Shown here piece after piece: positions 11,178 to 37,654 of a stretch of 64,000 bases of DNA. How positions within the stretch are numbered: the stretch's first letter is position 1; each line of letters opens with the position of its first letter. Origin of the DNA: Gigantopelta aegis (taxonomy: Eukaryota); the NCBI RefSeq assembly GCF_016097555.1, contig NW_024532772.1:67754-131753 (forward strand). The letters run 5' to 3'. A model generated the notes under the pieces. That model had not been told where the DNA came from, searched no databases, and was given only the letters and a program-made list of their open reading frames with translations. The translations under genes and the position numbers were made by a program.

Positions 11178-11266
11178 TCTTATTATCCTTTAAAGAGACC
11201 CGCCTAAAATTATTAATTATTATTAAAACCACGCCTTTTAAATAATTAGAGAAGGGCGTGGTTTTG
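11178..11266. promoter_or_regulatory. 89-bp head-to-head intergenic region (putative bidirectional promoter) with an 11-bp inverted repeat AAAACCACGCC(N19)GGCGTGGTTTT
   Basis: The minus-strand KMT5A-like ATG is at 11175-11177 and the plus-strand dehydrogenase ATG at 11267. IR arms at 11225-11235 and 11255-11265, plus gacccgcc at 11204-11211. Confidence 0.5.
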
Positions 11267-12508: not shown

Positions 12509-12539
12509 GTTAAACGATTTCTTAAGTATCTTTAATTAT

Positions 12540-13866: not shown

Positions 13867-14018
13867 AAATAAATTATAACTATGTATATATAATTAATTA
13901 TTTTTATAGACCAAGTCTTTCCTTTACAAATCAGTCTCCATCCAACCTACCAATATGATTTTGATCAGATGAGAGTGAACTTTGGCAATCTCATTCACAA
14001 GGTTGCACCTCTCATTGA

Positions 14019-14586: not shown

Positions 14587-14926
14587 TAGTACTATATGAC
14601 CACACCAAGCTTAGTATAAAACATGTTACACTAGCTAGACAAATATTATTTCTTTATCTGTTATTTTCTAGACTATACAGCTACTGAAGATGAAATATGT
14701 CAAATAGAACAAATGAGTAAGGAAGGGAAGGAATGTTGAATATTAAATTTTAATGCCTAATATGATAAACATGTTTGTATGTATAATATATCATATATCT
14801 TTAATATTACAATACTATCCTACCTTATTTAGGAGAGAACATAGAAGTGGCACAAGAAAGTGAAAGTGGGGTGATAATGACAAGTAGATTAAGAGACATC
14901 AAAGAAGATCAGTATCATCTGAGGGA

Positions 14927-16065
14927 ATGAAATGGCATAATTATAATGTTGTTATTACTGGAGGTTGTGGTTTTCTGGGCCTCCATCTTGCTCGACTGCT
15001 TTACCAAAAGGTTCAAGGCATTCATATAATCTTGTTTGATAAGAATCCTGCTGATGAAGCTGCCATGAATTTCATTACTAATGTAGGATATAATAAAGAT
15101 CGTGTCCGTTACAGTGGAAGACACAATGATATTACGATTCTAGAACATCTCAATGCAGCTTTTCAAGATGCTGATGTTGTCTTCCATTGTGCTGCAATAA
15201 CATCCTCATTTGCTCAAATAGATTTCAATAAAAAATGCAGAAAGTCAATGTAGAAGGCACAGCAAATGTTGTCAAAGCTTGTCAGAGACAAGGTGTACGA
15301 GCACTAGTCTTCACTGGTGACTTAGCTCAGGTTTTAAGATCTGGGCTTCATGTACAAGAGGGTATCACTGAAGATGTCATAGTTTCATGATCATGAGGAG
15401 TTAGTAATGGATTGTTTTTGGACGTTCAAAGACTGAAGCAGAGAGGAAAGTCCTCCAAGCAAATGGGTTCAAGACAACCTTATACACTTGTTCAATACGT
15501 TGTCCTCCTTTATATGGAGAAAATGATACTACATTCTTACCAAATGCTTTCTGGGCTGCTGAAAGATTTTGTAAGCATTTTCCTTTAGTTGGACATCCTT
15601 CCGTAAAAATGACTGCTATGTATGTGGAAAATGCAGCCTGGGGTCATATATGTGCAGCAAACAAACTATTGGATGAAAATGCCAGACTTAGAGTTGGTGG
15701 TCAGTTTTATTATGTCACAGATGACACTCCTTCTGAAAGCTACAGTGATTTCTTTAAGCGATTTCTTAAATATCTTGGTTATAATGTGTTACCTATTCGT
15801 CTTCCTGTCCTCCTTCTTACATGTTTTACTTACTTAATGGTTGTCTTGATTGTATTTTTAATGGCTTTTTTTCGATATAAAAGCCCGAGTCGTGTTTTTT
15901 AATTATCGTCGTCAACTTAAAATGTTATCTATCAGTCATACTGTTTCAAGAGAAAAGGCAAGGACTGAGTTGGACTATGAGCCTCACGTTCAATTTGATG
16001 AGGCATTCAGGAAATCTTCTAGATGGTATAATTTTAACATTGGAATGCTTCTAGACATAATATGA
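14927..16065 (+). pseudogene. tandem paralog of the 3beta-HSD-family gene, disrupted by several indels
   Basis: MKWHNYNVVITGGCGFLGLHLARLLYQKVQGIHIILFDKNPADEAAMNFITN... is about 90% identical in nucleotides to 11390-12508. Breaks at 15236 (A6 against A7), 15372-15390 and others. ORFs 14927-15253 and 15609-15902 are its pieces. Confidence 0.7.
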
Positions 16066-16161: not shown

Positions 16162-16229
16162 ATGATGTCTTCTGAGGAATGGAGGAGTCTAGGAGACACA
16201 GAAAAACGGCAGGCATTTGTCAGAAAAAC
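16162..16229 (+). CDS. MED15: MED15-like (KIX-domain, Q-rich) locus 1, exon 1
   Basis: MMSSEEWRRLGDTEKRQAFVRKT then donor. Resembles the Mediator-15 KIX start (..DWRS..FRQK.V..I). The same ~400-bp exon1-intron-exon2 module recurs at 26875-27280 and 33700-34100. Confidence 0.5.
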
Positions 16230-16399
16230 GTAGGAGTAATTCAAAAGATGTGTGAACAAAGAGGTGAGTAATTTGATGATATATAATCGAAAGACCCACT
16301 CGTTGTTAAGTTACTTTATAACAAGCTTTGATGTTGATATCTCTCACAAACTGACCTTTAAAATAGAACTATTACTATATTGTTATTGTTCTTGTTCAG

Positions 16400-16487
16400 T
16401 GCTGCGGCAGTGAGGATATTTCCTGAAGTCTTAACTCGTAATCCAGGAGATATAGAAGCTACTATCTACAATAAAGCTAAATCTGAG
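16400..16487 (+). CDS. MED15: MED15-like locus 1, exon 2 (KIX continuation)
   Basis: AAAVRIFPEVLTRNPGDIEATIYNKAKSE between acceptor cttgttcag and donor GTAAGT. Confidence 0.55.
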
Positions 16488-17692
16488 GTAAGTCTCACTT
16501 TGTATATTGACCACTAATGATTACTGTATTGTTTAATATTGTAAATATAACAATATATAATTGTATATTGTATATATTATATAATCTTATCATAATTGAA
16601 ATATTTAAGACTTCTTTGAGCGAAGATACCAGACTATCTTTCGCCATGGAACATGGTAGACTGGGGACAAGACTAAAATAATTAATAAATGTCCCTATAT
16701 GAACTAGGGCACTAAATAGAACACTGTTATTTATTTAGACTTTTCAAAGTATATATCTTTGCTAACTTTTTTACAGAAAGAGTATATGAACTTGGTATAT
16801 AGGATAGTTTTAGCCATTAAATTAGGCCTGTACGATATTCGGATAGATTTAGAACCTCAAGACAGTATGTTCTAATATATATATGGTCTGCTTTTATCAC
16901 TAGAAGCATTGGATACGTCTCAACCGGCATTATAGAGAATGTCTTCTTACGATCAGGACCGGAGGAGGCCCGAAAATGTCTGGTTTCAAGACTTATCTAA
17001 TAATTGATTTGGGAGATACTAACTTTATAGTGAAATATAATTATACCAACTATAAAGTTACAAAGTTTGGATAGTTAGTAACATTGTCTATACTGATCAT
17101 GATAGAATACTATAGAAATGTAACTATATAGGTACCTAGAGAAGCAAAACAGTTTGAGCCTTCAAATTAGTCCCACTGTAAATAATGAAATTAACTATGG
17201 TCACATCCATCATCATACTGAACACTTGCAGCTGGAGTTATATGTTTTGGCAGTTAATGGATGTGGTTTATTTTATATGGTACTTTCAATTATCGCATAC
17301 AACAATAATTATGTTAAATCACAAAACATACTATATATACCATTTGGTTCAAATGATTGTAGGACAGTATGCCAGGCAATAAAAATTGATGCACATACCA
17401 TCCTTCAAGAGATATAATTGTAACCAAAAGGAAGAGTGTATGGCTCTATTATCATATATACATGATCATGAGCAAACAGTATATTCCTGTTTTGCATAAT
17501 TGCTTAGAATGATAATGAAACTATGACATTGCTATAGTAACACTTCCATGTGGATATCTTATGATGTTAACTTACTATGTATAGCTGGCTGTGTTATCTT
17601 CCATCTTTTGGTTACAAATGCATGTGGGCCTATGAACATACATTAATTTTATATGTACATGATAGGACTGTTACTATTGTGGTATTTCTCCT

Positions 17693-17788
17693 ATTTAGTG
17701 CTAAGGCAATGAGAACCTTTTCTGGTGTCTCAGCTAATAATCCAGTTCCTATAGAAACTACTAGTTTTAGTAGTGCAGAGTCTGAGGT
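17693..17788 (+). CDS. MED15: divergent duplicate of exon 2 (AKAMRTFSGVSANNPVPIETTSFSSAESE)
   Basis: Paralogous to 16400-16487 and ends at the same GTAAGT donor. Confidence 0.4.
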
Positions 17789-18428
17789 AAGTGTTTACTT
17801 TTGCTTTTCAAATGTATCCCATAATGTCAAACCACACACTGTCTAATCTCTGACATAGTCTTTAATAAGTCTTTTGGTCTATTGTTGTCTCATTTGATTG
17901 ACTTAGCTGTAGCCTACATGTACATTTACAGTTTAATGTTATTATAAGTTCATTGTTAAAATTGCAAATTCATTGTTAATAGTGTACATGTAGTTAATTC
18001 TATACTGTATATGTATTTTAGTTTATGTCAAAAATGGAACTACAATAAAATGTTAAATAAAAATAAAATTAAACTTTACAATTTGTTGGAGCATTCAACC
18101 TAATCTTTGTTCTTTCTGTGGGGGTTCATTTCTTACTGTGCAAGCTAGGAAGGTGGAAGGAGTTCCATACTCTAACCAATTTATACTCTAACCAATTTGG
18201 TTGTCTTTTTTCATTTCTTGGGATTCTACACATAATTGCATCAATAAGGCATTAATCTAGTTGCTCATCAATCTTATAATTTCACTGACACATATAATAT
18301 ATATGAATGAATGTGACACTGATAATGGAGGATATAGTCATTACTATAACAACACTGCTGTTGTATTCTAACTACACCAAACATTTACTACTTTTCTACT
18401 GTTATTGTTTTGCCTGTAGGATGGATGC

Positions 18429-18500
18429 ATGAGCACAAGAAATGTGGCAATTCAGCTAATGCAGCAACAACAGCTTTATGTTGGATACCAACCGCAAACA
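18429..18500 (+). CDS. MED15: Q-rich exon (DGCMSTRNVAIQLMQQQQLYVGYQPQT)
   Basis: Acceptor tgcctgtag, donor GTATAT. Confidence 0.4.
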
Positions 18501-18888
18501 GGTATATGCATATTCATTTATTATATAAGTAAATTAAAATTAGACTAAAAAAATAAATTCATGAAATTTATTACCTCCAAATTTAATGACCCAATCAAAT
18601 GTAAGTATTCAAATCCTCATCCACAGATTTTATAGCAAATGGGAAGGTTTTTAACAGAGTGCTAAAATGGCATAGAATGGCTAAAATGGCTAATTTTGCC
18701 AAATATAGTTTTCAAAAGTTAGTTGTGTATAGCATTGTATTTTTGAAGTTATCATGGTGTATAAGAATTATGGATAAAGAAGAAATAGAAAAGGACATCA
18801 TAGCATCCCTACTACTATAATTACATAATTTACCTTGAATTACATGTCTCATCTTGTATCATGTAAGGTCTTTATACTATACATGCAG

Positions 18889-21800
18889 GAGGCGAAATGA
18901 TGCAAAGACCGCAAGGAATGAGGGAAAGGAATCGTGTGAACCATAATGTCCCGGTAGATCCTACAGGCCTAGGATATTCCAGCTGTCCACCTGGAATGCG
19001 TCTAATGCATCCACCAGTACATTATGAACAACCTGCTGGTATGCGTATGGTAAACCAACCTACTCCTCAGCTGACAATGCACAATATGACACAGCAACAG
19101 GAACAACAGGAATGTCAATATCCACGGCAACCAGATAGATGGCAACCACAATCAGGTAGATTTATAATTCTTTTACTCAATCACTGATTTTGTCAGTTCA
19201 TACACTTTTGTAATAACAATAATTTATAACAACACAGTTTCAAATCCATATATTGAAAGTCTCATACAAGCATTAGTCTCACACACATATACTTTAAAAG
19301 TATTGTACCCTACCTTAAAAATCTAATGTGTACCTCCTCAGCCATACATTAATAGTCTCATACTAATACATATATACAGGAAGTGAAATGATACAAAACC
19401 CACAAGAAATGACAGAAAGGGATCATGTGGACCAGAATATTCATGTAGCTCCTACAGGATATTCCAACTGTCCAACTGGAATGCATTTAATGCATCCACC
19501 AGTACATTATGAACAACCTCCTGGTGTGCGTATGGTAAACCAACCTACTCCTCAGCTGACAATGCACAATATGACACAGCAACAGGAACAACAGGATGTC
19601 AATATCCACGGCAACCAGATAGATGGCAACCACAATCAGGTAGATTTATAATTCTTTTACTCAATCACTGATTTTGTCAGTTCATACACTTTTGTAATAA
19701 CAATCATTTATAACAACACAGTTTCAAATCCATATATTGAAAGTCTCATACAAGCAGTAGTCTCACACACATATACTTTAAAAGTCTTGTACCCTACCTT
19801 AAAAATCTAATGTGTACCTCCTCAGCCATACATTAATAGTCTCATACTAATACATATATACAGGAAGTGAAATGATACAAAACCCACAAGAAATGACAGA
19901 AAGGGATCATGTGGACCAGAATATTCATGTAGCTCCTACAGGATATTCCAACTGTCCAACTGGAATGCATTTAATGCATCCACCAGTACATTATGAACAA
20001 CCTGCTGGTATGCGTATGGTAAACCAACCTACTCCTCAGCTGACAATGCACAATATGACACAGCAACAGGAACAACAGGAATGTCAATATCCACGGCAAC
20101 CAGATAGATGGCAACCACAATTAGGTAGATTTATAATTCTTTTACTCAATCACTGATTTTGTCAGTTCATACACTTTTGTAATAACAATAATTTATAACA
20201 ACACAGTTTCAAATCCATATATTGAAAGTCTCATACAAGCATTAGTCTCACACACATATACTTTAAAAGTATTGTACCCTACCTTAAAAATCTAATGTGT
20301 ACCTCCTCAGCCATACATTAATAGTCTCATACTAATACATATATACAGGAAGTGAAATGATACAAAACCCACAAGAAATGACAGAAAGGGATCATGTGGA
20401 CCAGAATATTCATGTAGCTCCTACAGGATATTCCAACTGTCCAACTGGAATGCATTTAATGCATCCACCAGTACATTATGAACAACCTCCTGGTGTGCGT
20501 ATGGTAAACCAACCTACTCCTCAGCTGACAATGCACAATATGACACAGCAACAGGAACAACAGGAATGTCAATATCCACGGCAACCAGATAGATGGCAAC
20601 CACAATCAGGTAGATTTATAATTCTTTTACTCAATCACTGATTTTGTCAGTTCATACACTTTTGTAATAACAATCATTTATAACAACACAGTTTCAAATC
20701 CATATATTGAAAGTCTCATACAAGCAGTAGTCTCACACACATATACTTTAAAAGTCTTGTACCCTACCTTAAAAATCTAATGTGTACCTCCTCAGCCATA
20801 CATTAATAGTCTCATACTAATACATATATACAGGAAGTGAAATGATACAAAAACCCACAAGAAATGACAGAAAGGGATCATGTGGACCAGAATATTCATG
20901 TAGCTCCTACAGGATATTCCAACTGTCCAACTGGAATGCATTTAATGCATCCACCAGTACATTATGAACAACCTCCTGGTGTGCGTATGGTAAACCAACC
21001 TACTCCTCAGCTGACAATGCACAATATGACACAGCAACAGGAACAACAGGAATGTCAATATCCACGGCAACCAGATAGATGGCAACCACAATCAGGTAGA
21101 TTTATAATTCTTTTACTCAATCACTGATTTTGTCAGTTCATACACTTTTGTAATAACAATAATTTATAACAACACAGTTTCAAATCCATATATTGAAAGT
21201 CTCATACAAGCAGTAGTCTCACACACATATACTTTAAAAGTCTTGTACCCTACCTTAAAAATCTAATGTGTACCTCCTCAGCCATACATTAATAGTCTCA
21301 TACTAATACATATATACAGGAAGTGAAATGATACAAAACCCACAAGAAATGACAGAAAGGGATCATGTGGACCAGAATATTCATGTAGCTCCTACAGGAT
21401 ATTCCAACTGTCCAACTGGAATGCATTTAATGCATCCACCAGTACATTATGAACAACCTCCTGGTGTGCGTATGGTAAACCAACCTACTCCTCAGCTGAC
21501 AATGCACAATATGACACAGCAACAGGAACAACAGGAATGTCAATATCCACGGCAACCAGATAGATGGCAACCACAATCAGGTAGATTTATAATTCTTTTA
21601 CTCAATCACTGATTTTGTCAGTTCATACACTTTTGTAATAACAATAATTTATAACAACACAGTTTCAAATCCATATATTGAAAGTCTCATACAAGCAGTA
21701 GTCTCACACACATATACTTTAAAAGTCTTGTACCCTACTTAAAAATCTAATGTGTACCTCCTCAGCCATACATTAATAGTCTCATACTAATACATATATA

Positions 21801-23016
21801 CAGGAAGTGAAATGATACAAAACCCACAAGAAATGACAGAAAGGGATCATGTGGACCAGAATATTCAGCTCCTACAGGATATTCCAACTGTCCAACTGGA
21901 ATGCATTTAATGCATCCACCAGTACATTATGAACAACCTGCTGGTATGCGTATGGTAAACCAACCTACTCCTCAGCTGACAATGCACAATATGACACAGC
22001 AACAGGAACAACAGGAATGTCAATATCACGGCAACCAGATAGATGGCAACCACAATCAGGTAGATTTATAATTCTTTACTCAATCACTGATTTTGTCAGT
22101 TCATACACTTTTATTTATAACAACACAGTTTCAAATCCAGTCTCATACAAGCATTAGTCTCACACACATATACTTTAAAAGTATTGTACCCTACCTTAAA
22201 AATCTAATGTGTACCTCCTCAGCCATATATTAAAGTCTCATACTAATACATATATACAGGAAGTGAATAACTGGTATGCAACCACCTATGATACAAAACC
22301 CACAAGAAATGACAGAAAGGGATCATGTGGACCAGAATATTCATGTAGCTCCTACAGGATATTCCAACTGTCCAACTGGAATGCATTTAATGCATCCACC
22401 AGTACATTATGAACAACCTCCTGGTGTGCGTATGGTAAACCAACCTACTCCTCAGCTGACAATGCACAATATGACACAGCAACAGGAACAACAGGAATGT
22501 CAATATCCACGGCAACCAGATAGATGGCAACCACAATCAGGTAGATTTATAATTCTTTTACTCAATCACTGATTTTGTCAGTTCATACACTTTTGTAATA
22601 ACAATCATTTATAACAACACAGTTTCAAATCCATATATTGAAAGTCTCATACAAGCAGTAGTCTCACACACATATACTTTAAAAGTCTTGTACCCTACCT
22701 TAAAAATCTAATGTGTACCTCCTCAGCCATACATTAATAGTCTCATACTAATACATATATACAGGAAGTGAAATGATACAAAACCCACAAGAAATGACAG
22801 AAAGGGATCATGTGGACCCAGTAGCTCCTACAGGATATTCCAGCTGTCCACCTGGAATGTGTCTAATGCATCCACCAGTACATTATGAACAATCTCCTGG
22901 TATGCGTATGGTAAACCAACCTACTCCTCAGCTGACAATGCACAATATGACACAGCAACAGGAACAACAGGAATGTCAATATCCATGGCAACCAGATAGA
23001 TGGCGACCACAATCAG
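18889..23016 (+). CDS. MED15: array of 10 tandemly duplicated symmetric exons (261 bp, phase 1-1) spaced about 485 bp apart, each encoding an 87-aa M/H/P/Q-rich module
   Basis: For example exon 20349-20609 lies between acceptor atatacag and donor GTAGAT. It encodes (G)SEMIQNPQEMTERDHVDQNIHVAPTGYSNCPTGMHLMHPPVHYEQPPGVRMVNQPTPQLTMHNMTQQQEQQECQYPRQPDRWQPQS. Units begin near 18889, 19380, 19864, 20349, 20835, 21320, 21805, 22280, 22765. Units 21805 and 22765 carry small deletions. Confidence 0.7.
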
Positions 23017-23187
23017 GTAGATTTATAATTCTTTTACTCAATCATTGTATTTTTGTATGATAAAAATACAAACAAGCCTTAGTTTTATACCCATACAGTA
23101 AACGTTTCATACCCATGCATTGAAGTCTCATAGTCATTAATTAAAACTTTGATTCTTGTGTACACAGGAGGTGAAATGATGCAAAGG

Positions 23188-24340
23188 TCACGAGGAATGA
23201 AGGAAGGGAATTATGTGAACCATAGTATGCCAAGAGGTGTACGTCAACCAGATCCAACAGGATATCCCAGGTTTCAACCAGTAATGGATCTAATGCAGCC
23301 ACCAGCACATTATGGACCACATTCTGGTATGGGTATGCCAAGAATGATAAACCAACCTACTCCTCGGCCTGCATTGTATAACATGCCACAGTCAGGAGGC
23401 TCTGTGATGCAAAGACATCCACATATGGGAAGTCACCCTAGAATGGTTCGTCCACCTATGAACCCTCCTCCATTCATGACAAGGGGAATGCAACTAGGAA
23501 CAACTGTAATGCAGCTTTCTGGAGAACATTGTCAAATGATGACTCATCCTTATACTAGTGTAGTCAGCTCTTTACATCATCCTCCAAGTCATTTGCCAGT
23601 GGTGTCTCACTTTCTCTCTGAAACCCCTTCGACATTCTTTTCCAAAATGTTTCAAACACCGCAAAGACCCATTAGTGGTCCTCGATCATCTGTATCTCAT
23701 CTAGTTATTCAAGACAAATCAAAATCACTCCTCATAAACGAAATCTACACTCTCAATGTGATAAACTAAGCAAAAGACCAATTAATCCTCTCCTATCTTT
23801 ACCATTATCATCAGCTTCATTAGTGAATTCTGAAACTGTTATTGTATCTCCAAATGATTCATCTGGTTTTGTTTATAATAGTGTAGATGTGCCAATATCA
23901 TCAGAGCATCAATATGAAAGAAAGAAATCCATTGAAGAGGAACAGAAAAATGGCAGAAAATCACCAAAACAAGTGAAAACAAAAGAACCTCCTGACATAG
24001 CGCAATGTAAGATCACATCTAGTGCTTTTAAAAATGTTTCTTCTTTGGTGGTGGTATCATCAGATCATGAACATAATGTAATGACTACTCAAGAATCATT
24101 AGTTAGGCAGGGTCATCTATATTTTAAAGACCGTTCAAGGAAGCAATCAAATGAAATTGCATGTTGTAGTGATACAATCAATCAACAGTCATGGAAGGAG
24201 GGATGGGCTGATGGGTGGATGAATGGATGGATGGATGCATCAAAAGGTCTACCTCTGAATCCTGAAATACCGTTCAATTATAAAAATTTACCTCCAGAGC
24301 TAACAAGACCATCATCACTACCAAATTTTCAATTAACTAT
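23188..24340 (+). CDS. MED15: downstream M/P/H/Q-rich low-complexity exons of locus 1
   Basis: GGEMMQRSRGMKEG...MMQRHPHMGSHPRMVRPPMNPPPFMTRGMQLG... Paralogous to 27741-28195 and 34568-35158. Confidence 0.45.
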
Positions 24341-24945
24341 AGTAAGTAACCCATGTTATTGTGATAGCAAATTGCATTTTTGAGCAAGAATAGTACATTA
24401 TATTTAAAGGATAATGATTTTTCATTATTAACAAATGTTTGTATATGTCATGCTGTCGCTGCTACAAATGTATCATTCAGAGGAACCAAGTATATATGAA
24501 ACTACAAATCAAAATTGTGTGTTATATTGTATATATATATGAACCAATTAATAATATTCAATAATTTGTATGCTTTAATTTGTTTTTGCACAATAAATGC
24601 TTTACCAGCCACAATTAAGACAATGCATTGATTTCTTTTATTTCAGTAATGTATAAGAGAAACAACCTTATCAATGAAATTCATCATGCATCCTATTGAT
24701 GTTAGTGATCAGTTTATGCCACCATTAGCAAGCAATTAGCTTGAAAAAGTGATTTGAGGCCACAAGTCCCACTTTGATATGCCTGCATATCAAACAATAA
24801 CTAATACTAATGCACTCTTCTTTATATGTAGTGTTCTCACAAAATACTTTGACACAAAGTGTACAAGAGGGAAACGTCACAGGAACACACCAATCCATTG
24901 GTAAGTATAATGAAGCCAACAATGGATGAATATTTTCATATTTCT

Positions 24946-25160
24946 AGATAAAATATTTCAAACCTATTTTGATGATCTTTGTGTGGCAATCGAAGCTTAC
25001 CCACTCCGCATTGTTAATAAACTTATTTCTTCTCAACTAATAGATTCTACTGTTAGAAAAGATGTAACAGATATGCAGAGTGCATATCAAAAGGCTAACA
25101 AAATTGTTATGAGTATTGAGAGCTGTTTAAAAGGTAATAATAATCAACTTGAATATCTGC
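24946..25160 (+). CDS. helical death-fold-like exon of unknown family
   Basis: DKIFQTYFDDLCVAIEAYPLRIVNKLISSQLIDSTVRKDVTDMQSAYQKANKIVMSIESCLK between acceptor tatttctag and donor GTAATA. A degenerate paralog lies at 33165-33460. Confidence 0.3.
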
Positions 25161-25837
25161 AAAAGTTTTGCGACTTTCTTCAAAACAAAGTTGATTATAG
25201 AATTCTTAATATATTGGTGCTAAAATGGGGACTGATTGTAAATTAGCTTACCCCTTTCTTCTGTAGAAAAGAGGGTCTGGAATTAGACTCTTTTAATAAT
25301 TTATATTATAAAATCATACATTCTAGGTTATTTATTTGAAATTTATAATCTAAACCTAACATTATAGTAAAAACAGTTTCTATAGAAACTATACAAGAAC
25401 TCCTAAAAGTATTATTCCAAATATGTATATAATAATTATCTGTATTTTTTGTTTTAAACAATAGCAAAATTTTTATACTTTTCTATTATTCTGTCAATCC
25501 GAAAATCAGTTCATTGCTGATGTTGGAAAAAATATTAACATTTAGATAGTGTGGTAATGAATGTTTAATATAGGGGGTGGTGCATTTTACGACCAGTTTA
25601 GAAATCATGATGTCTGTCACGGAATATCTGGACCCCCGAAATAATTGTTACCCGGAACAATTATTTCAAAGTTTTAAATGAAAGGAAACGGCCGCCTTTG
25701 AAATGTAGTGACCCCCTTTATATATTTCACACTTTTTTCAAGTTCTCTGTCAGATGCTAGTAACATATCATTGAGCGACCATAAAATGGCATGCTTGAGC
25801 GCTTGGTGTTACAGTAGATCTACTGGACGAACGGAGC

Positions 25838-26629
25838 ATGGACTCAGAAAGTGAAATCAGTACCACTGAGCCCGAAGACCTGATTTTAGATCTAGCCATC
25901 CATTATGCTGTACATCGCAGCTATCCACCAGGGTCGTCAAAGGAGAAAGCAGTACTTATTAATAATGGCTGGCTGACAGACAAGATCATCAATGAAGCTC
26001 AAAGTTTACTGAAGAAAAAATACCCCTATGTTAATGGACTTCAGGATGTGACACTAGGACTACTTTGTCATTTGCTATACAAACAGAGGAGTTTGTTCAA
26101 TTTTTCATACTGGACATGCCCACTGGGTAACAGTTACCAACATTGGTTGCAAAGATGGGGAAATCAACATCTTCGATAGCTATCCCCCAGTCACTACAAC
26201 ACACCTACTAGACCAGATTGCAGCACTGCTTGCAACTCCAAGATCTACCAGATATATGGACACCCAACTGCAGTGTGGTTCAACAGACTGTGGCATCTTC
26301 GCCATTGCATTTGCTGCAACCCTAGCAAATGGGATTAACCTGGGGCTTTCCATTTTGATCAGCCACAAATGCGAAAGCACTTGATACACTGTCTAGAAAC
26401 ACAGTGTCTCTCAGACTTTCCAGTTCAGCGAAGAAGGAGAAGAGGAAATGTAGTTAAGCATTCATATGCTCTGTACATCTACTGTTCCTGTAGAATGCCT
26501 GAACATCCAGGATGTACAATGGTGCAGTGCTCTACCTGTGGAGAGTGGTTCCATGTTGGTGTATGTGTGACTATACCCACTGAAATTTTAGACTCATCTA
26601 CAAAGTGGTCCTGTAACAAGTGTATTTAG
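25838..26629 (+). CDS. intronless Ulp1/SENP-like (C48) cysteine protease with a C-terminal PHD-type zinc finger. Frame slips at a T5 run near 26104
   Basis: LINNGWLTDKIINEAQSLL (the WLND-type motif), FHTGHAHWVTVTNIGCKDGEINIFDSY (His and Asp), QCGSTDCGIFAIAFAATLANG (Gln and Cys), then CSCRMPEHPGCTMVQCSTCGEWFHVGCVTIPTEILDSSTKWSCNKC. Confidence 0.6.
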
Positions 26630-26881
26630 TATAGTGTCAACACATTGCAACATAGAGATTATTAATTATTCATGGTGGTCTTTATGTTTTAGTTTTGTTG
26701 AAATATTAGTTCCAGGGGGGGGGCAATATATTATGAAAAAGAAGGACCTAGGGGGGATTTATTATTTCAGAGAGGGTTCATATATTTCAACATGCCACTG
26801 AAATATAAGTTCCAGGGGGATCAAATATTGCAAAATATTAGGACCGGGGGAACAAATTAAGGGGAACCAATTTTTTGTGAC

Positions 26882-27193
26882 ATGTCTTCTGAGGAATGGA
26901 GGAGACCAGAAAAACGACAGGCAATTGTTAGGAAAATGTAAGAGTAATATTAAAAGATGTATGGACAAATAGATGAATGAACTGATGATATTGAATCGAA
27001 AGACCCACTTGTTGTTAAAGTTATATTATAACAAGCTTTGATGATATTCTTACAAACTGACCTTTAGAATAGAATTGTTACTATATTGTTATTGTTCTTG
27101 TTCAGTGCTGAGGCAGTGAGAATGTTTCCTGGAGTCTCAACTTGTAATCCAGGAGATGTAGAAGCTACTATTTACAACAAAGCTAAATCTGAG
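26882..27193 (+). CDS. MED15: MED15-like locus 2, exons 1-2 (KIX)
   Basis: MSSEEWRRPEKRQAIVRKM..., then intron, then exon 27106-27193 AEAVRMFPGVSTCNPGDVEATIYNKAKSE. Confidence 0.5.
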
Positions 27194-27740
27194 GTCAGTC
27201 TCACTTGTATATTGACCACACTACTGATTACTTTATTGTTTAATATTGTAAAGATAACAATACATCATTAACACAGTATTTATTGTTATATCAAAAAAAT
27301 ATATAATTATAACAAATATAAAAAATATCACAACAATCACTATAATATGAATACAAAATGTTTAATTATAATAAATTACAGTTTAATAATTGGGACATTA
27401 AATAGAACATCTTAATGGGTCTATATTTTTCCTAATCTATTTTATAGCATGAGTATATGAACATGGTTGGTAAGATAGATTTGTCTATTAAGCATAGAGG
27501 AATGGGACTGATCCAACAAACAACAACATCCTGCACAGCAACCAGGCGGATGGCAACCACAACCAGGTAGATAGATAAATGTTAAAGATCTTGTACCCAT
27601 CCAATGAAAGTGCGATACCTATAAATTAAAACTCTCACACACCTGTTCAGTAACCTCTTACTCATACATTAAAATGTCTCATACTCATACACTTGAACTC
27701 TCATACCCATTATTAAGAGCTTTCATTCTCATGTGCACAG

Positions 27741-28195
27741 GGGCACATTGTAGACCACATTCTGGTATTGGTATGCTAAGAATGATAAACCAACCTACTC
27801 CTCAGCCTGCAATGTATAACATGCCACAGTCGGGAGGCCGTATGATGCAAAGACATCCACATATGGGAAGTCACCCTGGAATGGTTCGTCCACCTATGAA
27901 CCTCCCTCCATTTATGACAAGGGGAATGCCACCGGGACAATGCCTCCAATGAGACCTGTAATGAATATGGCCTCGATGCAGGGTTCTGGGAAAACAAGTG
28001 GTGACAGCATTACCTAATCCATATATCACTGGAGTTGACCCTGCCCATCAACCTCCCGGCCATCCATCTGGTGCTCCCTCCCCTTATTCCAGAAGTGCTT
28101 CCTCGTCTGTTTATCAACCCTCTCATCCAACAGCTTCTTCAGGTGCACCTCCTCCACAACCACATCCTCCTCAGACCAATTCTCCAAAGCCTCGT
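27741..28195 (+). CDS. MED15: MED15-like locus 2, Q/P/M/S/Y-rich exon with two apparent 1-nt frameshifts
   Basis: ...MINQPTPQPAMYNMPQSGGRMMQRHPHMGSHPGMVRPPMNLPPFMTRGMPPG / MRPVMNMASMQGSGK / VTALPNPYITGVDPAHQPPGHPSGAPSPYSRSASSSVYQPSHPTASSGAPPPQPHPPQTNSPKPR, then GTAAGT. Confidence 0.45.
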
Positions 28196-28282
28196 GTAAG
28201 TTTGATAATTACCAATACATGAACGATCCTCCTTTTCCATATAGCCTCATATCCCATATCTCATATCCCATATCCCATCTCC

Positions 28283-28325
28283 CAATACTCCTTGGAATCC
28301 AATTAAGAAACTCTTTGTTGAGAAA
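28283..28325 (+). CDS. MED15: locus 2 remnant of the conserved Med15 C-terminal motif exon (..LRNSLLRKKR). The preceding ~320 bp present in locus 3 is deleted
   Basis: Alignment of 28270-28330 against 35270-35680. Confidence 0.35.
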
Positions 28326-29959
28326 GAAACGGGTAACTGCTTTGATAATCTAAGATCATCCACTCTCTATCTCTTTCCATTTATTTCATATTACTTTGTC
28401 TCCAACTTCCTCTCTTCTCATATGCCTTTTTCTATATCCAAATACAGCCCTTCTGATAAGTCACCTCCTAAGAAGAAAGCAAGTTTTGAAAACCAAAGTT
28501 GTTTACATAAAGTATATTATGAATTTATATATTCTTACCTAATACAGTTACATAAGGTATTATTATATATAGTAAAACACTTAATATAATATAGTAATGA
28601 GGAGCATATTAGCTTGCAACATTGGTACTATTATTTAAAGGAGAAGGTTGGGTATAAAGCAGTATGTGTGTGTGTGGGGGGGGTGTTACTATAGCAACAA
28701 TATTATAAATTGTTAATTGCAAGTAAACATTACTTCTTTCTTAACAACCAAGTAGGCTATTTATAGTATATCCTGTGTTTGATCATTTGTAATTATATTA
28801 AATGATAGTATGGGACTGTATACACTTCTTGGTTATGTTCTCTTACGAGGCAATTAACTATTAAATAAATGGTGTGAATATATTATTTATAATTCAAGAC
28901 TATTAGGCAATAGATTAAACAAGAGTATAAATCGAGATTGTCTTGACAGTACTAGGCTCTTATCTATGCTATTGTCTATAATACACAATGAGACTTCTCT
29001 ACCTAAGTGCTTGAACCTAAGCGTTTTTGTTAGCACCCTACTTAGATATTCAGTCAAGTTAAATGATTAACTAAAGATTCCAAGTTGGCAAAAGTAACAT
29101 CTTTCTTTGTCACTTACAAATGGAATCATTAGCTTCTATGTAAAAAAGCAAGGTTTCATTTTTGACAGTTATTATAGTGAAAAAAGCTTTATGGCTAAAG
29201 TTTGAAGTATTTACTGACTACATCAGAACTGTACCCATAATTCAATTTCTTAGCATTAACATCATATATTATCAAATTTTAATCTGCCTTACTTAATTTT
29301 ATATCTCTCCATTTTCCCACATTTTTTCCTTTATAATATCTTAAGGTACTATTAAGGAACAACAAGCCAATAAATTAGAGTTTGAAGAATTTAAAATTGC
29401 CACAGAAGTACAGAGTAAGGTTCGAATTGTTATATTAAGTAAATAGGATCAATTACAATGTCATTTCTTTAGATGTATCTGTTCTTCAAAATAATGCACG
29501 TTTTAGACAAGTATTTGAAAAGGCTACACCAGAACAAAGAAAGGTATGAAGATGATTAGTGACTATATGTTTATTATTATATTCTCTTTAAGATGTTAAT
29601 GGCCAGATTTGAACAAAAAGCACGACAGCAAGAACAAATCAGTATGTTTATAGTCTTCTAAATAATAAGTGTTACTTTGATGGTTATGTGCAGTGATGAA
29701 AGCTTTATGGCTAGTTAAATTCTAAAGAATACATCAGAACTGTACCCATAATTCAATTTCTTAGCATTAACATCATATATTATCAAATTTTAATCTGCCT
29801 TACTTAATTTTATATCTCTCCATTTTCCACATTTTTCTCATCCTAAGTCCTTGATCCTTTTAATGGCAATGAAGTAGTGTAACTTTTAATCATTATTTAT
29901 TTTGCATTGTCCATGTGTGTGACATTAAGAGAGGTTGGGGAATAGCATACCATAGAAAT

Positions 29960-33699: not shown

Positions 33700-34349
33700 A
33701 GAAATCATGATGTCTTCTGAGGAAGGAGGAGACCAGAAAAAGCGACAGGAATTGTCAGGAAAATGTAAGAATAATATTAAAAGGCCCACTTATTGTTAAA
33801 GTTACATTTATAACAAGCTTTGATGTTGATATCTCTCACAAACTGACCTTTAGAATAGAACTATTACTATATCGTTGTTTGTTATTCTTTTTGTTCAGTG
33901 CTGATCCCCCGGGCAGTGAGGATGTTTCCTGAAGTCTTAACTCGTAATCCAGGGATGTAGAAGCTACCCTATCTACACACAAAGCTAAATCTGAGGTAAG
34001 TGGTCACTTTGTATATTGACCACTAATGATTTACTTTATTGTTTACATATTGTAAATATACCAATACATCATTAATTAGTATCATATTGGTATGTCTAAA
34101 ATATATATGGATTATAACAAATGTAAAAGATATCATATCAACAGTAATGTGAATAAAAAATACCCTCATTTAATGATAATTAATAGATTTACTGATAATA
34201 ACAAGATTGTAAGATTAGTAATTGGGACATGTAATAGAAACGTACTTAATGGGTATATATTTTTGCTAATCTCTTTTATAGCATGAGTCTTATGAACAGG
34301 GTTGGTAAGATAGTTTTGTCTATTAAGCATAGAGGAATGGGACTGATTG

Positions 34350-34380
<31 letters not shown>

Positions 34381-35673
34381 CTCCACAGCAACCAGGTGGA
34401 TGGCAACAACCAACAGGTAGAACATAATTGTTAAAGATCTTGTAACCCATCCATGAAAGTTCTCGATACCTATAAAATTAAAAACTCACACTATTCATTT
34501 AACCTCTACTCATACATTAAAAAGTCTCATACCCATTCATACAACTTTTTTTCATTCTCATGTACACAGGAAGTGAAATGATTCAAAAGACCACAGGGAA
34601 TGATAGAATGGGATCATATGAACCAGGGCCTGACTGGAGGTGTACCTCAACCAGATCCAAACAAGGATATCCTGGGTTTCAACCAGGAAGCCACCCAATG
34701 CAACCACATTATGGACAACATTCTGGTATGGGTATATTGCCAAGAATGATGAACCAAACCTACCTCAGTCTGTATGTATAACAATGCACAGTGGGGGGGA
34801 GGGCCTATGATGCAAAGACATCAACATATGGGAAGTCACCCTGGAATGGTTGTCAACCTATGAACCCCCTCCATTAATGACACAAGGGAATGCCACCGGG
34901 ACCAATGCTCCTAGGAGACCCATAATGAATATGACCTCGATGCAGGGTTCTGGAGACACAGTGGTGACGGCATTACTAATCCATATACACATGGAGTTGA
35001 CCCTGCCCATCAACCTCCGGCCATCCATCTGGTGCTCCCTCTCCCTTATTCCGGAAGTGCTTCTCGTCTGTTTATCAAACCCCTCATCCAACAGCTTTAC
35101 AGGTGCACACCTCCTCCAACACCACATCCTCCTAGACCAATTCTCCAAAGCCTCGTTGTAAGTTGATAATTACCAATACATGAACGATCCTCCTTTTCCA
35201 TATAGCATCCTCAAGCACCTTCCCATCGTCAGCCCTTATCCCACCCCCCCCCCCCCCATCTCCCAATACTCATTGGAATCCAAATTCTCATCAATATATA
35301 CCAGCCCTGGTCAAACCTCAGGCCAGCCATCTATCACACCAGAAGCCAATACAGTGTTCTTGTTTAAAACTTCAGGAAAACTACGCCTTATATACCACTG
35401 TTAGCTAGAATGATTGACAGATTAAATCGAGCTAAAGGATCAAGTGATGAGAAGAAGTCGGTTGACCAGCTCTCAAAGTTAAAAAACAGTCTTTACAATG
35501 TTGCAATCAAAAAATATGAGTAAATAGATATAAACTTATATGATGGAATTAGCATTTTGAGTTAATGAAGTTTGGGAGTGTTAATAACATCTTCTTTCCT
35601 TTAGGTTCCTTTGCAAAACTTTAGAAAAGTGCCATCAAGCTCTTAAGAAACTCTTTGTTGAGAAAGAAAACAG
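33700..35673 (+). pseudogene. MED15: MED15-like locus 3: KIX exons, a Q/P-rich exon and two conserved Med15 C-terminal exons, with multiple frameshifts
   Basis: Exon 35376-35518 LKLQENYALY / IPLLARMIDRLNRAKGSSDEKKSVDQLSKLKNSLYNVAIKKY(E) and exon 35605-35673 FLCKTLEKCHQALKKLFVEKEN match Med15 ...YLDKLKQLSKYIEPLRRMINKIDKNEDRKKDLSKMKSLLDIL..KRCPLKTLQKCEIALEKL. Frames break at 33935, 34790-34870 and 35390. Confidence 0.55.
35240..35256. repeat. poly-C tract (C14)
   Basis: cccaccccccccccccccatctc. Confidence 0.8.
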
Positions 35674-37654
35674 GTAACGCTTTGATAATCTAAGATCATC
35701 CACTCTCTATCTTTCCCCCCCTCTCTCTCTCTCACACACACACAGGAGTACCTTCATTGGCTCCTTCCACATCTACAGCTCCAACTAAACAAGTGACTCT
35801 TTGATCGCTCCATCGACTCCCAATCTCGTCCTCCTATCCCATCCACTCCACCCATCTCATCCACTTCGCTACACAATTTCAAAAATGCTACATTCGCCAC
35901 CTCCCCTCTCCTCGTATCTCTATCCTACCCTTGATTCTGATGAAGATCTCTGATAGGTTACACCAGAGAGAGAGCAAAGCTTGAAGAACAAAGTAGTACT
36001 GAACATTACTCTCTATCCTGTTCTAACACGTTTGTCCTTTAGTTTCACAGTCTTTTCACTATGCCTTGAAGAGAGAAATTAATAATTTGAGACACTTTAA
36101 AGTTAAGCAGATACAACCCTTAACAAGCACGAAATGGACGCCACTCAGTAAACACTAGAATGTACTTTAAGTAAGTATCGGAAGAAAATCTCTCTCTCTC
36201 TCTCTCAGTCTCTTTCTCTCACAGTCTCTCTCTTCTCATAAAAAAGCTAACATCTCATTTTCCTTTTTTTAGTTGATGACAGCTTACCAAACAAATGCTC
36301 CTTTAATTGTTAATATCCCACGTGGAATATCCTCAGTTCTCCGAGTGTCAACTTAACAGTACTATTGCAAAACAAAGATGACTCTCCTGCTATCACAGCT
36401 GTCATTGAGGGTTTGTGGAGAAAGAAGCTGTTAAAGGAGAAACTATCACATTGTGGACATAATTATACACTAACTTCTACTTTTACAAAATTGGGAAGTG
36501 CTATAATTGAAGTGGTAGCGAGGAGATTTGAGTGATGATAAAGAATAATTGGTTTTTTTGTTTAGTTTTTGTTTTTGTTTTTGTTTACTAAACAAGCTCA
36601 AAAATTAATTTCAATTTTTTCCCCTATTGTAACTGCCATTGTCCAATTGTATCAATATTGTTATGATAATTAAAAGTACTTGTTAAACGTTCTATCAGTT
36701 AAATGGTATAGAGAGGATACTTCAGGTCAATGAAGTCTAAATGTTTCAGTGTGTATACCTATCTGAATAATTTGAGTTAGTAATCATCCCAACTCCAAAG
36801 GAACAGTAGATGCTTATCAACAGACAACTAACACTGTTTCCAAAGTTTGAAATCCCTCTGATGGTTGTAAATGCTAGAAATACGAGAGTACTTACAGCAG
36901 AGTGTCTGATTTTAAACTTTTATCGTTAATAGTCTTGGCAATCTCAGTTCCTATTATAAGTGACAATATTTTCTTATTTGAGACCAAATTCCTTTCGGAC
37001 TATCCATAAACCATTACTCTCATTCAGTCTTTTGTTAACACTCAATGTATTGATTAAATTTTCTTCATAGGACAGGACTATGGATAATGGATATGACAAC
37101 TCCCCTTTCCAGAAAAATGTACCATTGATGATGTATCATCAAATACTTTCCCACGTACATGTTTGGCTATAATAGGTACATGTACAGGATCATGTGGACA
37201 GACGTGGGTACCAAAGCATCCATTAAGGTTAGATAAACATTTAGAGTGTGTTTTTTGAACCATTTGGAAAGCAATACCTTATCATTTGATCATAGTGTAA
37301 ATATGTAATTAAATATATGTTGTTTAAAAGAAATTTAGCTTAATACTTATATGATATTTAGTTCTTTGTGGCTCCTATTAATTTAAATAATGATTTAAAA
37401 ATTAATATATCTAATGAGAGTTTAACAAATGTGTCATTTAGTTTAGACAAATTCAATGGGAAAAGTTCAGTAAGAGATGTTTGGTTAGTCAAATCGATAC
37501 TGTAGAAGTGGGGAAAAAATTATAAATTGTCTTTATATATTTTTACCTTTTGAAACTATCCACTCAGCATCTTTCAAGGCTTGTGAATAATTTGTTGAAT
37601 TCTTTCAGTATCTCTCTCATCAGAGTAAACTACGAAACTCCTATACCAAACAAC

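Follow-up and report, generated by a model that had tools for sequence, protein, structure and literature searches.

The array gene and its repeat exons

On the forward strand of the window, the whole stretch of 64,000 nucleotides analysed here, lies an array of head-to-tail units that recur every 485 bp (TRF: 18971-23053, 8.5 copies, 95% matches, score 7471). The TRF result and a parse of exons and introns together gave nine exon and intron units, R1 to R9, and the terminal exon begins at 23168 with a tenth homologous module, in agreement with the 9-10 copies of a 485-bp unit put forward in the original prediction. No ORF of 70 aa or longer occurs on the minus strand inside the array. The gene that contains the array is called gene B here, and its features are listed below; L001 refers to an independent contig of the array locus (ENA ERZ21830300), collinear with the window.

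17699..17786, + strand: E2' (AKAMRTFSGVSANNPVPIETTSFSSAESE), degenerate copy of KIX exon 2
18420..18501, + strand: E3' (DGCMSTRNVAIQLMQQQQLYVGYQPQT), degenerate copy of KIX exon 3; ends in phase 1, with an in-frame splice to R1
18889..23167, + strand: tandem array of nine exon and intron units, R1-R9
18889..19155, + strand: R1, 267 nt, in frame, PAGM type, the same as R1 of L001
19380..19639, + strand: R2, 260 nt, -1 frameshift (GGAATG to GGATG), PPGV type
19864..20124, + strand: R3, 261 nt, in frame; recombinant of a mid-type 5' part with an R1-type PAGM 3' part and intron A
20349..20609, + strand: R4, 261 nt, in frame; exon and intron the same as R2 of L001
20834..21095, + strand: R5, 262 nt, +1 frameshift (A4 to A5)
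21320..21580, + strand: R6, 261 nt, in frame; intron 1 nt short
21804..22059, + strand: R7, 256 nt, -4 and -1 frameshifts
22260..22540, + strand: R8, 281 nt, with a 20-nt insertion at 22268-22287
22765..23016, + strand: R9, 252 nt, in frame (9-nt deletion), counterpart of R3 of L001
23168..24383, + strand: terminal exon E4, with a module-like start, a MED15-exon-4-like part and a P0006-related remainder

All nine repeat exons are preceded by an acceptor AG and followed by the donor GTAGAT; the acceptor reads atatacag in R2-R9 and acatgcag in R1. The splice sites are in phase 1 at both ends and, at the junction between two repeat exons (...CAATCAG/GAAGTGAA..., with a slash at the splice point), the codon G/GA encodes Gly, as had been proposed. 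The intron downstream of each repeat exon measures 224 nt, or 151 nt after R9; that of R7 is 24 nt short, at 200 nt, owing to several deletions, among them deletions of 12 nt and 10 nt. The protein would gain 87 aa of M/H/P/Q-rich sequence from the MED15 low-complexity region with each exon included, and this module is very probably disordered. Indeed, the core of the original prediction, the tandem amplification of a symmetrical coding exon for an M/H/P/Q-rich module, is upheld.

It is in the reading frame that the array departs from what had been predicted. One 261-bp exon was expected in every unit, splicing in frame at any copy number, but only R3, R4 and R6 measure 261 nt. R1 (267 nt) and R9 (252 nt) are still in frame, so that five of the nine copies are divisible by three in length, whereas R2, R5, R7 and R8 are not. 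As assembled, the inclusion of all nine exons leads to a premature stop at 19873, and the frame is restored only by skipping R2, R5, R7 and R8. Small deletions in two of the copies had been noted, but the frameshifts were missed. The array, its splice sites, its sequence variants and the paralogous modules nearby thus stand; uniform exon length and general in-frame splicing do not, for the sequence as assembled.

The PPGV and PAGM variants that had been described are both present. The internal copies are a mosaic in which two types are arranged in order, PAGM being linked to intron A and PPGV to intron B; R3, R5, R6 and R7 are recombinants. Private events in the internal copies amount to about 11 indels vs. 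2 substitutions; R3 has one private substitution (S to L). The 20-nt insertion of R8 has no second occurrence in the window and is absent from all loci compared.

A different use of such an array would be as alternative or mutually exclusive cassette exons, one or a few per transcript, copy number then determining the choice of isoform and not protein length. All units have identical, competent-looking splice sites in the same phase, so that any subset could be joined. However, the in-frame copies encode peptides that are identical or nearly so, and a choice between them would give no diversity; at 97-100% protein identity, R1 and R9 excepted, the array copies do not show a Dscam-like divergence into alternative variants. 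We consider use as cassette exons highly improbable.

Gene B among the MED15-type loci of the window

MED15/ARC105 is a Mediator tail subunit with a KIX domain, a Q-rich disordered region and Med15_C, the part that anchors it in Mediator. Loci of this type are found on both sides of the array:

16162..16830, + strand: gene A, a truncated neighbouring duplicate with three KIX exons (E1 16162-16229, E2 16400-16487, E3 16777-~16830) and a Pfam Med15_N match
26880..28350, + strand: paralogous locus 2, with KIX exons 2 and 3 and an exon-4-like exon without the module's first half; frame-broken in the window
33700..36545, + strand: paralogous locus 3, with KIX exons, an exon 4 that contains one module (34569 onward) and, at 36152-36545, a last exon resembling Med15_C

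The KIX exons of gene A match Med15_N (PF09606) at 42.8 bits (E=4e-11), against a cut-off of 24.1, and Med15_N scores on the neighbouring KIX exons range from 42.8 to 55.8 bits. E3 of gene A is shortened by a 2.2-kb deletion relative to L001. The KIX exon model adopted here uses the donor AAAAC/GTAGGA (phase 2) and the acceptor ttgttcag/T and needs no correction; a first model was dropped because it required a frameshift in an A5 run.

A single module had been predicted at each of loci 2 and 3. Modules do occur there, at about 27.7 kb (C-terminal half only) and at 34.57 kb, but both loci are frame-broken in the window, as are SDR copy 2 and the Roc-COR gene. A tblastn search for KIX exon 1 of locus 2 gave no match. 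Locus 3 is heavily frame-broken, with intact ORFs in L001 and in L002; L002, like L003, is a contig from Xestospongia muta tissue metagenomes. In L002, an exon downstream of the locus-3-like copy matches Med15_C at 44.6 bits and aligns to 36152-36545 of the window. The L002 ortholog was used in place of a frame-patched translation of the window exon, which contains too many indels and had no Pfam match. Since its counterpart in L002 is followed by a Med15_C exon, locus 3 is apparently the MED15 locus itself. Taken together, the sequence relationships establish that the gene family of the window descends from MED15. Neither a lone module nor the terminal exon had a Pfam match, nor did the ORFs at loci 2 and 3 or P0005-P0007, and an Rfam search of the whole window gave no match either.

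Gene B resembles MED15 in its module and in the start of its terminal exon, both of which share homology with the M/P/Q-rich exon next after the KIX exons in the MED15 locus. It differs in that its own KIX exons fall below the Pfam cut-off, Med15_C is absent and its C-terminal half comes from another gene. E2' and E3' alone have no Pfam match at E<=10; together with exon 1 of the neighbouring gene they score 16.1 bits on Med15_N, under the gathering score of 24.1 bits, and E1 and E2 of gene A would join E3' in frame and, if so joined, score 25.7 bits. No first exon was identified for gene B; the 700 bp upstream of E2' show conservation over their whole length between the two gene B lineages. 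An ATG-initiated read-through ORF at 17577-17846 is open in the window and, by alignment reading, in L002, and is closed in L003.

The first ~70 codons of E4 are homologous to the repeat module and ~140 aa are MED15-exon-4-like: residues 2-139 of P0001, the intact terminal exon, share 58% identity with the exon-4 ORF of the MED15-type loci, P0005 (E=3e-49). Residues 172-313 are 39% identical to P0006, an unnamed 789-aa protein unrelated to MED15 (E=9e-17), and this part is followed by a W-rich motif (GWADGWMNGWMDA). P0001 has no Pfam match, hence no Med15_C (PF21539) in the terminal exon. Two 1-bp deletions, at about 23721 and 24339, interrupt the frame of E4 in the window; in L001 the ORF is intact, at 391 aa.

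The degenerate KIX exons, the lack of Med15_C and a C-terminal half from an unrelated gene indicate that gene B is a lineage-specific chimera derived from MED15, and not MED15 itself. The original prediction of a MED15-like gene with KIX and Q-rich parts therefore holds for descent, and its proposed profile check is borne out for gene A (Med15_N); it does not hold for gene B, whose E2' and E3' are without a match and which has neither intact KIX exons of its own nor a MED15 C-terminal half. The host of gene B is taken to be a sponge, probably Xestospongia, in view of the origin of L002 and L003.

Copy number and reading frame in other assemblies

A copy number that differs between assemblies was indeed found: L001 holds three repeat copies (267, 261 and 252 nt), all in frame, vs. 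nine in the window, both counts coming from assemblies and not from reads. The three units of L001 correspond to R1, R4 and R9, identical apart from one base in the R9 unit, consistent with the recent expansion that had been suggested. The two sequences show 0 substitutions in the R1 and R4 units, 4 in the 1.5 kb upstream and 0 over 1173 nt of E4, which differs by its two 1-bp deletions. It should be noted that part of the difference between three and nine copies could be an assembly error on either side, and the copy number of the array is not to be trusted without spanning reads.

Could the nine copies as a whole be an artefact of a noisy long-read assembly, by over-expansion or mis-joining of a three-copy array, or could L001 have collapsed? 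In favour of an artefact, indel noise in the window ranges from about 1 per 50 to 1 per 600 bp, indels greatly outnumber substitutions in the internal copies, and three copies are present in the one further assembly of this haplotype. However, the internal copies are not simple stutter; their two-type order with recombinants is what would be expected from unequal crossing-over. Moreover, at 4.3 kb the array is shorter than a typical long read, so that neither over-expansion nor collapse is expected. An assembly artefact seems improbable to us, and we take the array to be copy-variable.

The repeat exon is also present in related contigs, in 2 copies in L002, 3 in L003 and at least 2 in L004, the counts for the short-read contigs L002 and L003 being lower bounds. 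Nine of the ten repeat exons in L001-L004 are stop-free multiples of three that keep the AG and the GTAGAT, and the indels that set these nine apart from one another all have lengths divisible by three; after 40 random substitutions in a simulation, only 14% of exons remained stop-free. The terminal exon likewise keeps an ORF of 320-392 aa in L001-L004 at a dS of ~0.25, with only 3n indels. The frame has thus been kept in the relatives, and this, with the open reading frames and splice sites, lends indirect support to the predicted inclusion of the repeat exons in mature mRNA. The dN/dS ratios (0.6-0.9 for E4, 0.5-1 or more for the repeat exons) are close to neutral, and substitution identity in the repeat exons is slightly above that of the adjacent introns, and below it in some pairs.

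Assembly noise, and not biology, most likely accounts for the four out-of-frame copies. The excess of 1-bp indels over substitutions in the window suggests that its frameshifts are mostly technical: the Roc-COR-like gene at 30.1-31.7 kb, for example, has ~30 mostly 1-bp indels vs. 71 substitutions and no in-frame stop, whereas in L002 and L004 this gene is more diverged, yet has only 3-bp indels. The 4-nt deletion of R7, the 20-nt insertion of R8 and the deletions in the R7 intron are not homopolymer slips and may be real. In practical terms, the many small indels of the window would lead annotation pipelines to call most of its genes pseudogenes.

A less probable reading, though the one we weigh most seriously against our own, is that the expanded allele, or all of gene B, is a decaying pseudogene, with real frameshifts and an array that has become a neutral minisatellite of former exons. 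It would account for the four of nine exons that are out of frame, the premature stop at 19873, dN/dS ratios near 1, the degenerate KIX remnant and missing start exon, the loss of the E3' donor in L001 and the similar breakage of loci 2 and 3, SDR copy 2 and the Roc-COR gene in the window. However, three or four other contigs have these genes as clean ORFs, and the differences of the window from them are mainly 1-bp indels; substitutions are few or absent and in-frame stops are lacking, a technical pattern and not a mutational one. L001-L004 moreover keep the repeat-exon frame, the splice sites and the terminal-exon ORF at a dS of ~0.25, with only 3n indels. On balance we favour, as reasonably probable, a young, copy-variable exonic VNTR in a fast-evolving, lineage-specific MED15-derived sponge chimera, most of whose frameshifts are technical. 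Since the L001 allele, otherwise clean, lacks the E3' donor (an 85-bp deletion), gene B may nevertheless be dispensable or dying.

Related sequences were few. An exact look-up of the 94-aa repeat ORF in the indexed collection returned the L001 contig only, and a homology search with the composite conceptual protein returned no more than four ORFs, each an unnamed call from a metagenome. When 1.84 billion representatives were searched exhaustively with a profile, seven matches came up, none of them named. A scan of JGI metagenomes for the donor-junction motif gave 0 matches, and our literature search found no report of MED15 exon duplication.

Origin and growth of the repeat exon

The 5' ~215 nt of the repeat exon align to the start of exon 4 of the paralog. 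At its other end, the last ~35 nt, the donor and the opening bases of the intron can be aligned with the 3' end of exon 3 of that paralog (score 54, vs. a maximum of 30 in 100 shuffles), and the last intron of the array aligns to the paralog's intron 3. These alignments demonstrate, at the level of sequence, that the repeat exon is chimeric: it begins with sequence from the 5' part of exon 4 and ends with sequence from the 3' end of exon 3.

We propose that the chimeric exon arose through a tandem duplication whose two breakpoints lay in exon 3 and exon 4. The copied segment would have run from the 3' end of exon 3 through the donor and all of intron 3 to the acceptor and the first ~215 nt of exon 4; the duplication junction would then have created a new internal exon in phase 1 at both ends. 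Unequal crossing-over between units would subsequently have changed the copy number and, in the nine-copy allele, recombinants of the first and middle units would have been amplified. The array provides a clear view of the birth of an exon, in which breakpoints in two adjacent exons yield a new symmetrical exon that carries a whole intron along and is then amplified. It is a known kind of event, exon amplification by unequal crossing-over, in a new gene, and an ordinary but clean case of a gene lengthening a floppy protein region in this way. It also documents, in a sponge, a young chimeric gene built on the 5' end of an essential co-activator, within a local cluster of partial MED15 duplicates.

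The closest parallels are intragenic exon-containing VNTRs such as the kringle IV-2 repeat of LPA, and the chicken BG genes, whose lineages reportedly expand and contract dynamically. As in these, the units of the array lie head-to-tail, consist of complete exon and intron sequence in symmetrical phase, and vary in number between alleles; unequal crossing-over would be the common mechanism, with protein length following copy number. Unlike in LPA and BG, the unit contains a single 261-nt exon, this exon encodes low-complexity sequence and not a folded domain, and it combines parts of two neighbouring exons. Tandem duplication of exons is said to be common in animal genes, as Letunic, Copley and Bork reportedly described in 2002. 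The array shares with it an exon duplicated in place with its splice sites retained, but most such duplications involve two or three diverged copies, often used alternatively, whereas the copies here are nine, near-identical and variable in number.

Length alleles of the poly-Q tract of yeast MED15 have been associated with stress and fermentation phenotypes (PMC13541290). Both cases involve natural length variation in the disordered part of a MED15-type sequence. In yeast, however, a few residues change by trinucleotide slippage in one exon, whereas the array would gain or lose 87-aa exons with their introns by unequal crossing-over, in a paralog. Xestospongia may, as a long shot, carry a young MED15-derived gene family that has lost its anchor to Mediator, Med15_C, and a working KIX domain, and in which the disordered region varies between alleles in 87-aa steps (2 to 9 modules); its products could be tunable partners or competitors of MED15, made of the IDR only, in transcriptional condensates. 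If so, copy-number polymorphism would be functional variation in co-activator valency within a natural population of an animal from an early branch. Provided that the exons are expressed, the three- and nine-copy alleles would form a natural series bearing on whether the length of MED15-type disordered regions matters.

Structure of the array and origin of its repeat unit

The window is AT-rich (~35% GC), and its GT..AG introns mark it as eukaryotic. A 485-bp period was detected by Tandem Repeats Finder at 18971-23053 (8.5 copies, 95% matches, score 7471), and nine repeat exons, R1 to R9, were parsed by locating the conserved acceptor and donor strings in the sequence.

Repeat exons of the array (window positions)
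R1, 18889-19155, 267 nt
R2, 19380-19639, 260 nt
R3, 19864-20124, 261 nt
R4, 20349-20609, 261 nt
R5, 20834-21095, 262 nt
R6, 21320-21580, 261 nt
R7, 21804-22059, 256 nt
R8, 22260-22540, 281 nt
R9, 22765-23016, 252 nt

All nine are directly preceded by AG and directly followed by GTAGAT, and the array introns are mostly 224 nt long, the final one being 151 nt. The terminal exon of the gene holding the array (gene B), E4, starts at 23168 and opens with ~70 codons that amount to a tenth, diverged module copy (38% identity). Both splice sites lie in phase 1 and each junction encodes Gly (codon read as G|GA), as originally predicted. The minus strand of the array contained no ORF of 70 aa or more, and an Rfam scan of the window returned no matches.

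Two paralogous MED15-derived loci lie downstream.

Paralogous MED15-derived loci (window positions)
Locus 2, about 26.9-28.35 kb
Locus 3, 33.7-36.5 kb

Over its first ~215 nt, the repeat exon aligns with the beginning of exon 4 in the single-module paralogs. The stretch formed by its final ~35 nt, the donor and the opening intron bases aligns with the 3′ end of paralog exon 3 (TCCACGGCAACCAGATAGATGGCAACCACAATCAG|GTAGATTTATAATTCTT vs. TCCACAGCAACCAGGTGGATGGCA---ACAACCAG|GTAGATACATAATTGTT; score 54 vs. a maximum of 30 in 100 shuffles). The final intron of the array aligns with paralog intron 3. These alignments show that the repeat unit consists of the 3′ end of exon 3, intron 3 and the 5′ part of exon 4. 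Tandem duplication of such a unit would turn the junction into a new internal exon, inheriting an acceptor and a donor of equal phase.

Copy number and reading frame

The 216-kb contig L001 (ENA ERZ21830300) is collinear with the window across the entire cluster, and its array comprises three repeat exons (267, 261 and 252 nt), each of them in frame. R1 and R4 and their introns are identical to L001 units 1 and 2, R9 is one base off unit 3, E4 shows no substitutions and the 1.5 kb upstream only four; the two sequences thus represent essentially one haplotype, with nine vs. three units. In the six additional units, unit-1 variants (peptide variant PAGM, intron type A) and middle-unit variants (PPGV, intron type B) are combined in an ordered mosaic, R3, R5, R6 and R7 being recombinants. 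This is the pattern that repeated unequal crossing-over would give, rather than assembler stutter, making it improbable in our view that the count of nine is an assembly artefact. Since only two private substitutions occur across the extra units, the expansion, predicted to be recent or homogenised, appears to be very recent. The more distant copies have two units (L002), three units (L003) and at least two (L004, a contig that begins within the array), counts from short-read contigs being lower bounds only.

The repeat itself is real and the original structural description was largely right, but the claim of a 261-nt in-frame exon in each copy fails as assembled: the lengths of R2 (-1), R5 (+1), R7 (-4, -1) and R8 (+20) are not divisible by three. 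If every exon is included, the frame is lost at the end of R2 and a stop follows at 19873, within R3. Skipping R2, R5, R7 and R8 opens the frame again, from E3′, the last exon before the array, through to a stop at 23767-23769; use of the units as alternative cassette exons is a reading to which we give very little credence.

The cause of this failure is probably technical. The second copy of a 3-beta-hydroxysteroid dehydrogenase (3-beta-HSD)-like gene, a Roc-COR-like gene, exon 4 of loci 2 and 3 and the Med15_C exon are all frame-broken in the window, with clean ORFs in L001, L002 and/or L004. Between the window and L001, the Roc-COR-like gene shows 71 substitutions and ~30 indels, mostly of 1 bp, and contains no in-frame stop; in L002 and L004, which are more diverged, its indels are all of 3 bp. 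The ~30 small indels of this gene are the clearest sign of indel noise in the window assembly. E4 differs from L001 by two 1-bp deletions and no substitutions in 1173 nt, and the extra array units carry ~11 indel events vs. two substitutions, the indel rate (~1 per 260 bp) falling inside the range found elsewhere in the window. The pattern of differences argues for a technical rather than a mutational origin and, as the array rate lies within the window range, we think that the 1-bp frameshifts of R2, R5 and R7 are assembly noise. The 4-nt deletion and intron deletions of R7, like the unique 20-nt insertion of R8, may be real or technical. The insertion (TAACTGGTATGCAACCACCT, 22268-22287) lies near the exon start and loosely resembles the 3′ end of the R8 exon itself (GATGGCAACCAC); the window and the loci retrieved held no second copy of it.

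The noise is uneven, with R1, R4, R9 and 1.5 kb of flank nearly indel-free, which counts against a technical origin. Polishing errors inside repeats would explain this unevenness, though real decay of the extra copies may have taken place. The technical character of the 1-bp indels in several window genes speaks against decay by frameshift. That the array is a decaying pseudogene or a neutral minisatellite therefore seems to us unlikely, if less so than an artefact of assembly.

Comparison with the relatives gives indirect evidence on whether the units are coding exons. Nine of the ten repeat exons across L001-L004 are stop-free, a multiple of three in length and retain AG and GTAGAT. At least seven indel events separate these nine exons, all multiples of three, with many indels in the introns; in simulations, an exon was still stop-free after 40 random substitutions in only 14% of cases. 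In each of the four relatives the 323-392-aa terminal exon likewise remains open (dS ~0.2-0.3). Constraint on the amino-acid sequence is weak, with dN/dS of 0.6-0.9 in the terminal exon and 0.5-1 in the repeat exons (a few values >1), and substitution identity is only slightly higher in exons than in introns, or lower in some pairs. The module is composed of 67% P/Q/M/H/N/T/G/S and 10% I/L/V/F (mean hydropathy -1.3) and is very likely disordered, the whole profile being that predicted for a fast-evolving disordered coding region.

We favour, with moderate confidence, a three-part account based on these sequence comparisons: the array would be an exonic VNTR within a young chimeric gene; a tandem duplication spanning an intron would have created it, with unequal crossing-over changing its size; and each included unit would add 87 aa to a disordered region inherited from MED15.

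Gene B as a putative chimera

The upstream exons, said to encode a KIX-like N-terminus, fall into two sets, one belonging to a truncated neighbouring KIX duplicate, gene A.

KIX-related exons upstream of the array (window positions)
16162-16229, 16400-16487 and 16777-~16830, KIX exons of gene A, encoding MMSSEEWRSLGDTEKRQAFVRKTAAAVRIFPEVLTRNPGDIEATIYNKAKSEKEYMNLVYRIVLAIKLG
17699-17786, E2′, degenerate copy of KIX exon 2, between gene A exon 3 and the array
18420-18501, E3′, degenerate copy of KIX exon 3, between gene A exon 3 and the array

The gene A peptide is KIX-like: against Pfam Med15_N, the KIX domain of MED15 type (cut-off 24.1 bits), it scores 42.8 bits (E=4e-11), and the equivalent exons of locus 2 and gene A in L001 reach 46-56 bits. 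In the window, the gene A exons do not adjoin the array, and exon 3 is shortened by a 2.2-kb deletion relative to L001. The exons of gene B itself are degenerate: E2′ and E3′ alone have no Pfam match, and reach 16.1 bits on Med15_N, under the cut-off, with the neighbour's exon 1 added. E3′ ends in phase 1, with an in-frame junction to R1; a search upstream yielded no exon that could be assigned as the first of gene B. In the three-copy L001 allele, clean in other respects, an 85-bp deletion (L001 8270-8290, window 18478-18564) removes the 3′ end of E3′ and its donor, such that gene B may be non-functional there; the coding end of E3′ is kept in L002.

Past exon 3, L001 gene A extends as a Q-rich segment of coiled-coil-like character (IEQIQKQIQQLQQQLQQLKQQQQALQ..., L001 4150-4450), followed by a Roc-COR gene fragment; L001 4212-6400 is missing from the window between 16821 and 16984 (2.2 kb). 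Its exon 1 carries 9- and 11-bp deletions and has lost the GT donor.

Among 5.8 billion proteins, E4 (23168-24383) had only four relatives, all unnamed ORFs of ENA metagenome assemblies, and few more came from an exhaustive profile search covering 1.84 billion representatives. One ORF, P0001, matches the window at 100% identity wherever the two align, and shows E4 to be a single 391-aa ORF once two 1-bp differences are removed. P0005, the exon-4 ORF of MED15-type loci, shares 58% identity with aa 2-139 of P0001 (E=3e-49), and P0006, an unnamed protein of 789 aa in which Pfam recognises no domain, shares 39% with aa 172-313 (E=9e-17). Because E4 matches both a MED15-type exon 4 and P0006, and the upstream exons are KIX remnants, gene B appears to be a chimera in which a degenerate KIX remnant is followed by the repeat exons, a segment derived from MED15 exon 4 and a tail taken from another, unrelated gene and closing with a conserved W-rich motif. 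Gene B falls short of MED15 proper in two defining features, a KIX domain in the same gene and Med15_C, for which Pfam gave no match; the label of MED15-like co-activator was thus overstated.

The W-rich motif that closes E4 (WKEGWADGWMNGWMDASKGLPLNPEIPFNYKNLPPELTR; 24150-24260, P0001 aa 340-390) is among the best-conserved stretches of the relatives, its core being present in all four and the remainder in three; it matches nothing known.

Without Med15_C and with a degenerate KIX, a protein should neither sit in Mediator nor bind activators via KIX. Any role of gene B would have to come from the disordered region or the foreign tail. Given the near-neutral evolution, the failure to find a start exon and the L001 donor deletion, a weak or dispensable function seems likeliest.

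Intragenic tandem exon amplification with copy-number polymorphism is known, for example, from LPA kringle IV-2, which the window array resembles in both respects. Lineages of the chicken BG genes reportedly expand and contract dynamically. That the disordered part of a MED15-type protein can vary in length has a precedent in the poly-Q alleles of yeast MED15 (PMC13541290), which differ from the array in mechanism and scale. A literature search on MED15 exon duplication found no paper. The array adds to a known kind of event, its own traits being a clear origin and a copy-number difference between two assemblies.

Paralogous loci and neighbouring genes

An exon downstream of the locus-3-like copy in L002 matches Pfam Med15_C (44.6 bits) and aligns to homologous sequence at window 36152-36545. 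As its L002 counterpart is trailed by this exon, locus 3 would seem to be the actual MED15 locus. Across gene B, the window and L002 share 88-91% identity. The L002 and L003 samples (SAMN12290691 and SAMN12291129) are Xestospongia muta tissue (Reef Microbiomics Database sample table, PMC13083261 supplementary file 8), originally from Pankey et al. 2022 (per PMC13083261). Such a source suggests that the window sequence derives from Xestospongia or a near relative of it.

The 3-beta-HSD-like gene occurs in tandem, apparently as a single exon (11258-12508, 12519-12813 and 14847-16047). The first copy is an intact 416-aa ORF (Pfam 3Beta_HSD, 183 bits); the second carries frame-breaking 1-bp homopolymer indels in the window, whereas L001 has it as an intact 405-aa ORF (dN/dS 0.32); the third is a short fragment between the other two. 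The Roc-COR-like gene (30080-31700), between loci 2 and 3, encodes a P-loop protein of ~520 aa, weakly similar to Roc and COR-A, and is intact at L001 16086-17648, L002 7731-9296 and L004 5573-7168. CARD-like ORFs at 13572-14589, 24926-25246 and 33140-33457 adjoin the MED15-derived loci (Pfam CARD E=0.02, under the cut-off). A multi-gene unit seems to have undergone segmental duplication to give the MED15-derived cluster.

Between the array locus and locus 2, an ORF at 26369-26629 has a PHD-finger-like Cys/His pattern (CSCRMPEHPGCTMVQCSTCGEWFHVGVCV...WSCNKC). Further exon-like ORFs encode a bZIP-like basic region (NRVVAQNARDRRR; 41986-42162), a charged, coiled-coil-like segment (48810-49118), a stretch interrupted by a (GA)n/SLSLSL microsatellite (54165-54876, minus strand) and a sequence that is PP2C-phosphatase-like by eye (61735-62088, minus strand).

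Two 60-bp satellite arrays (715-1198 and 1511-2072) lie ~300 bp apart in opposite orientation, one consensus being the reverse complement of the other at 58/60 positions; they may be a palindromic satellite or mobile-element ends. A shorter related array with a 51-bp period lies at 5044-5220, and minisatellites are found at 4063-4656 (30/60-bp unit, ~10-20 copies) and 53219-53896 (38-bp unit, 18 copies, 93% identity).
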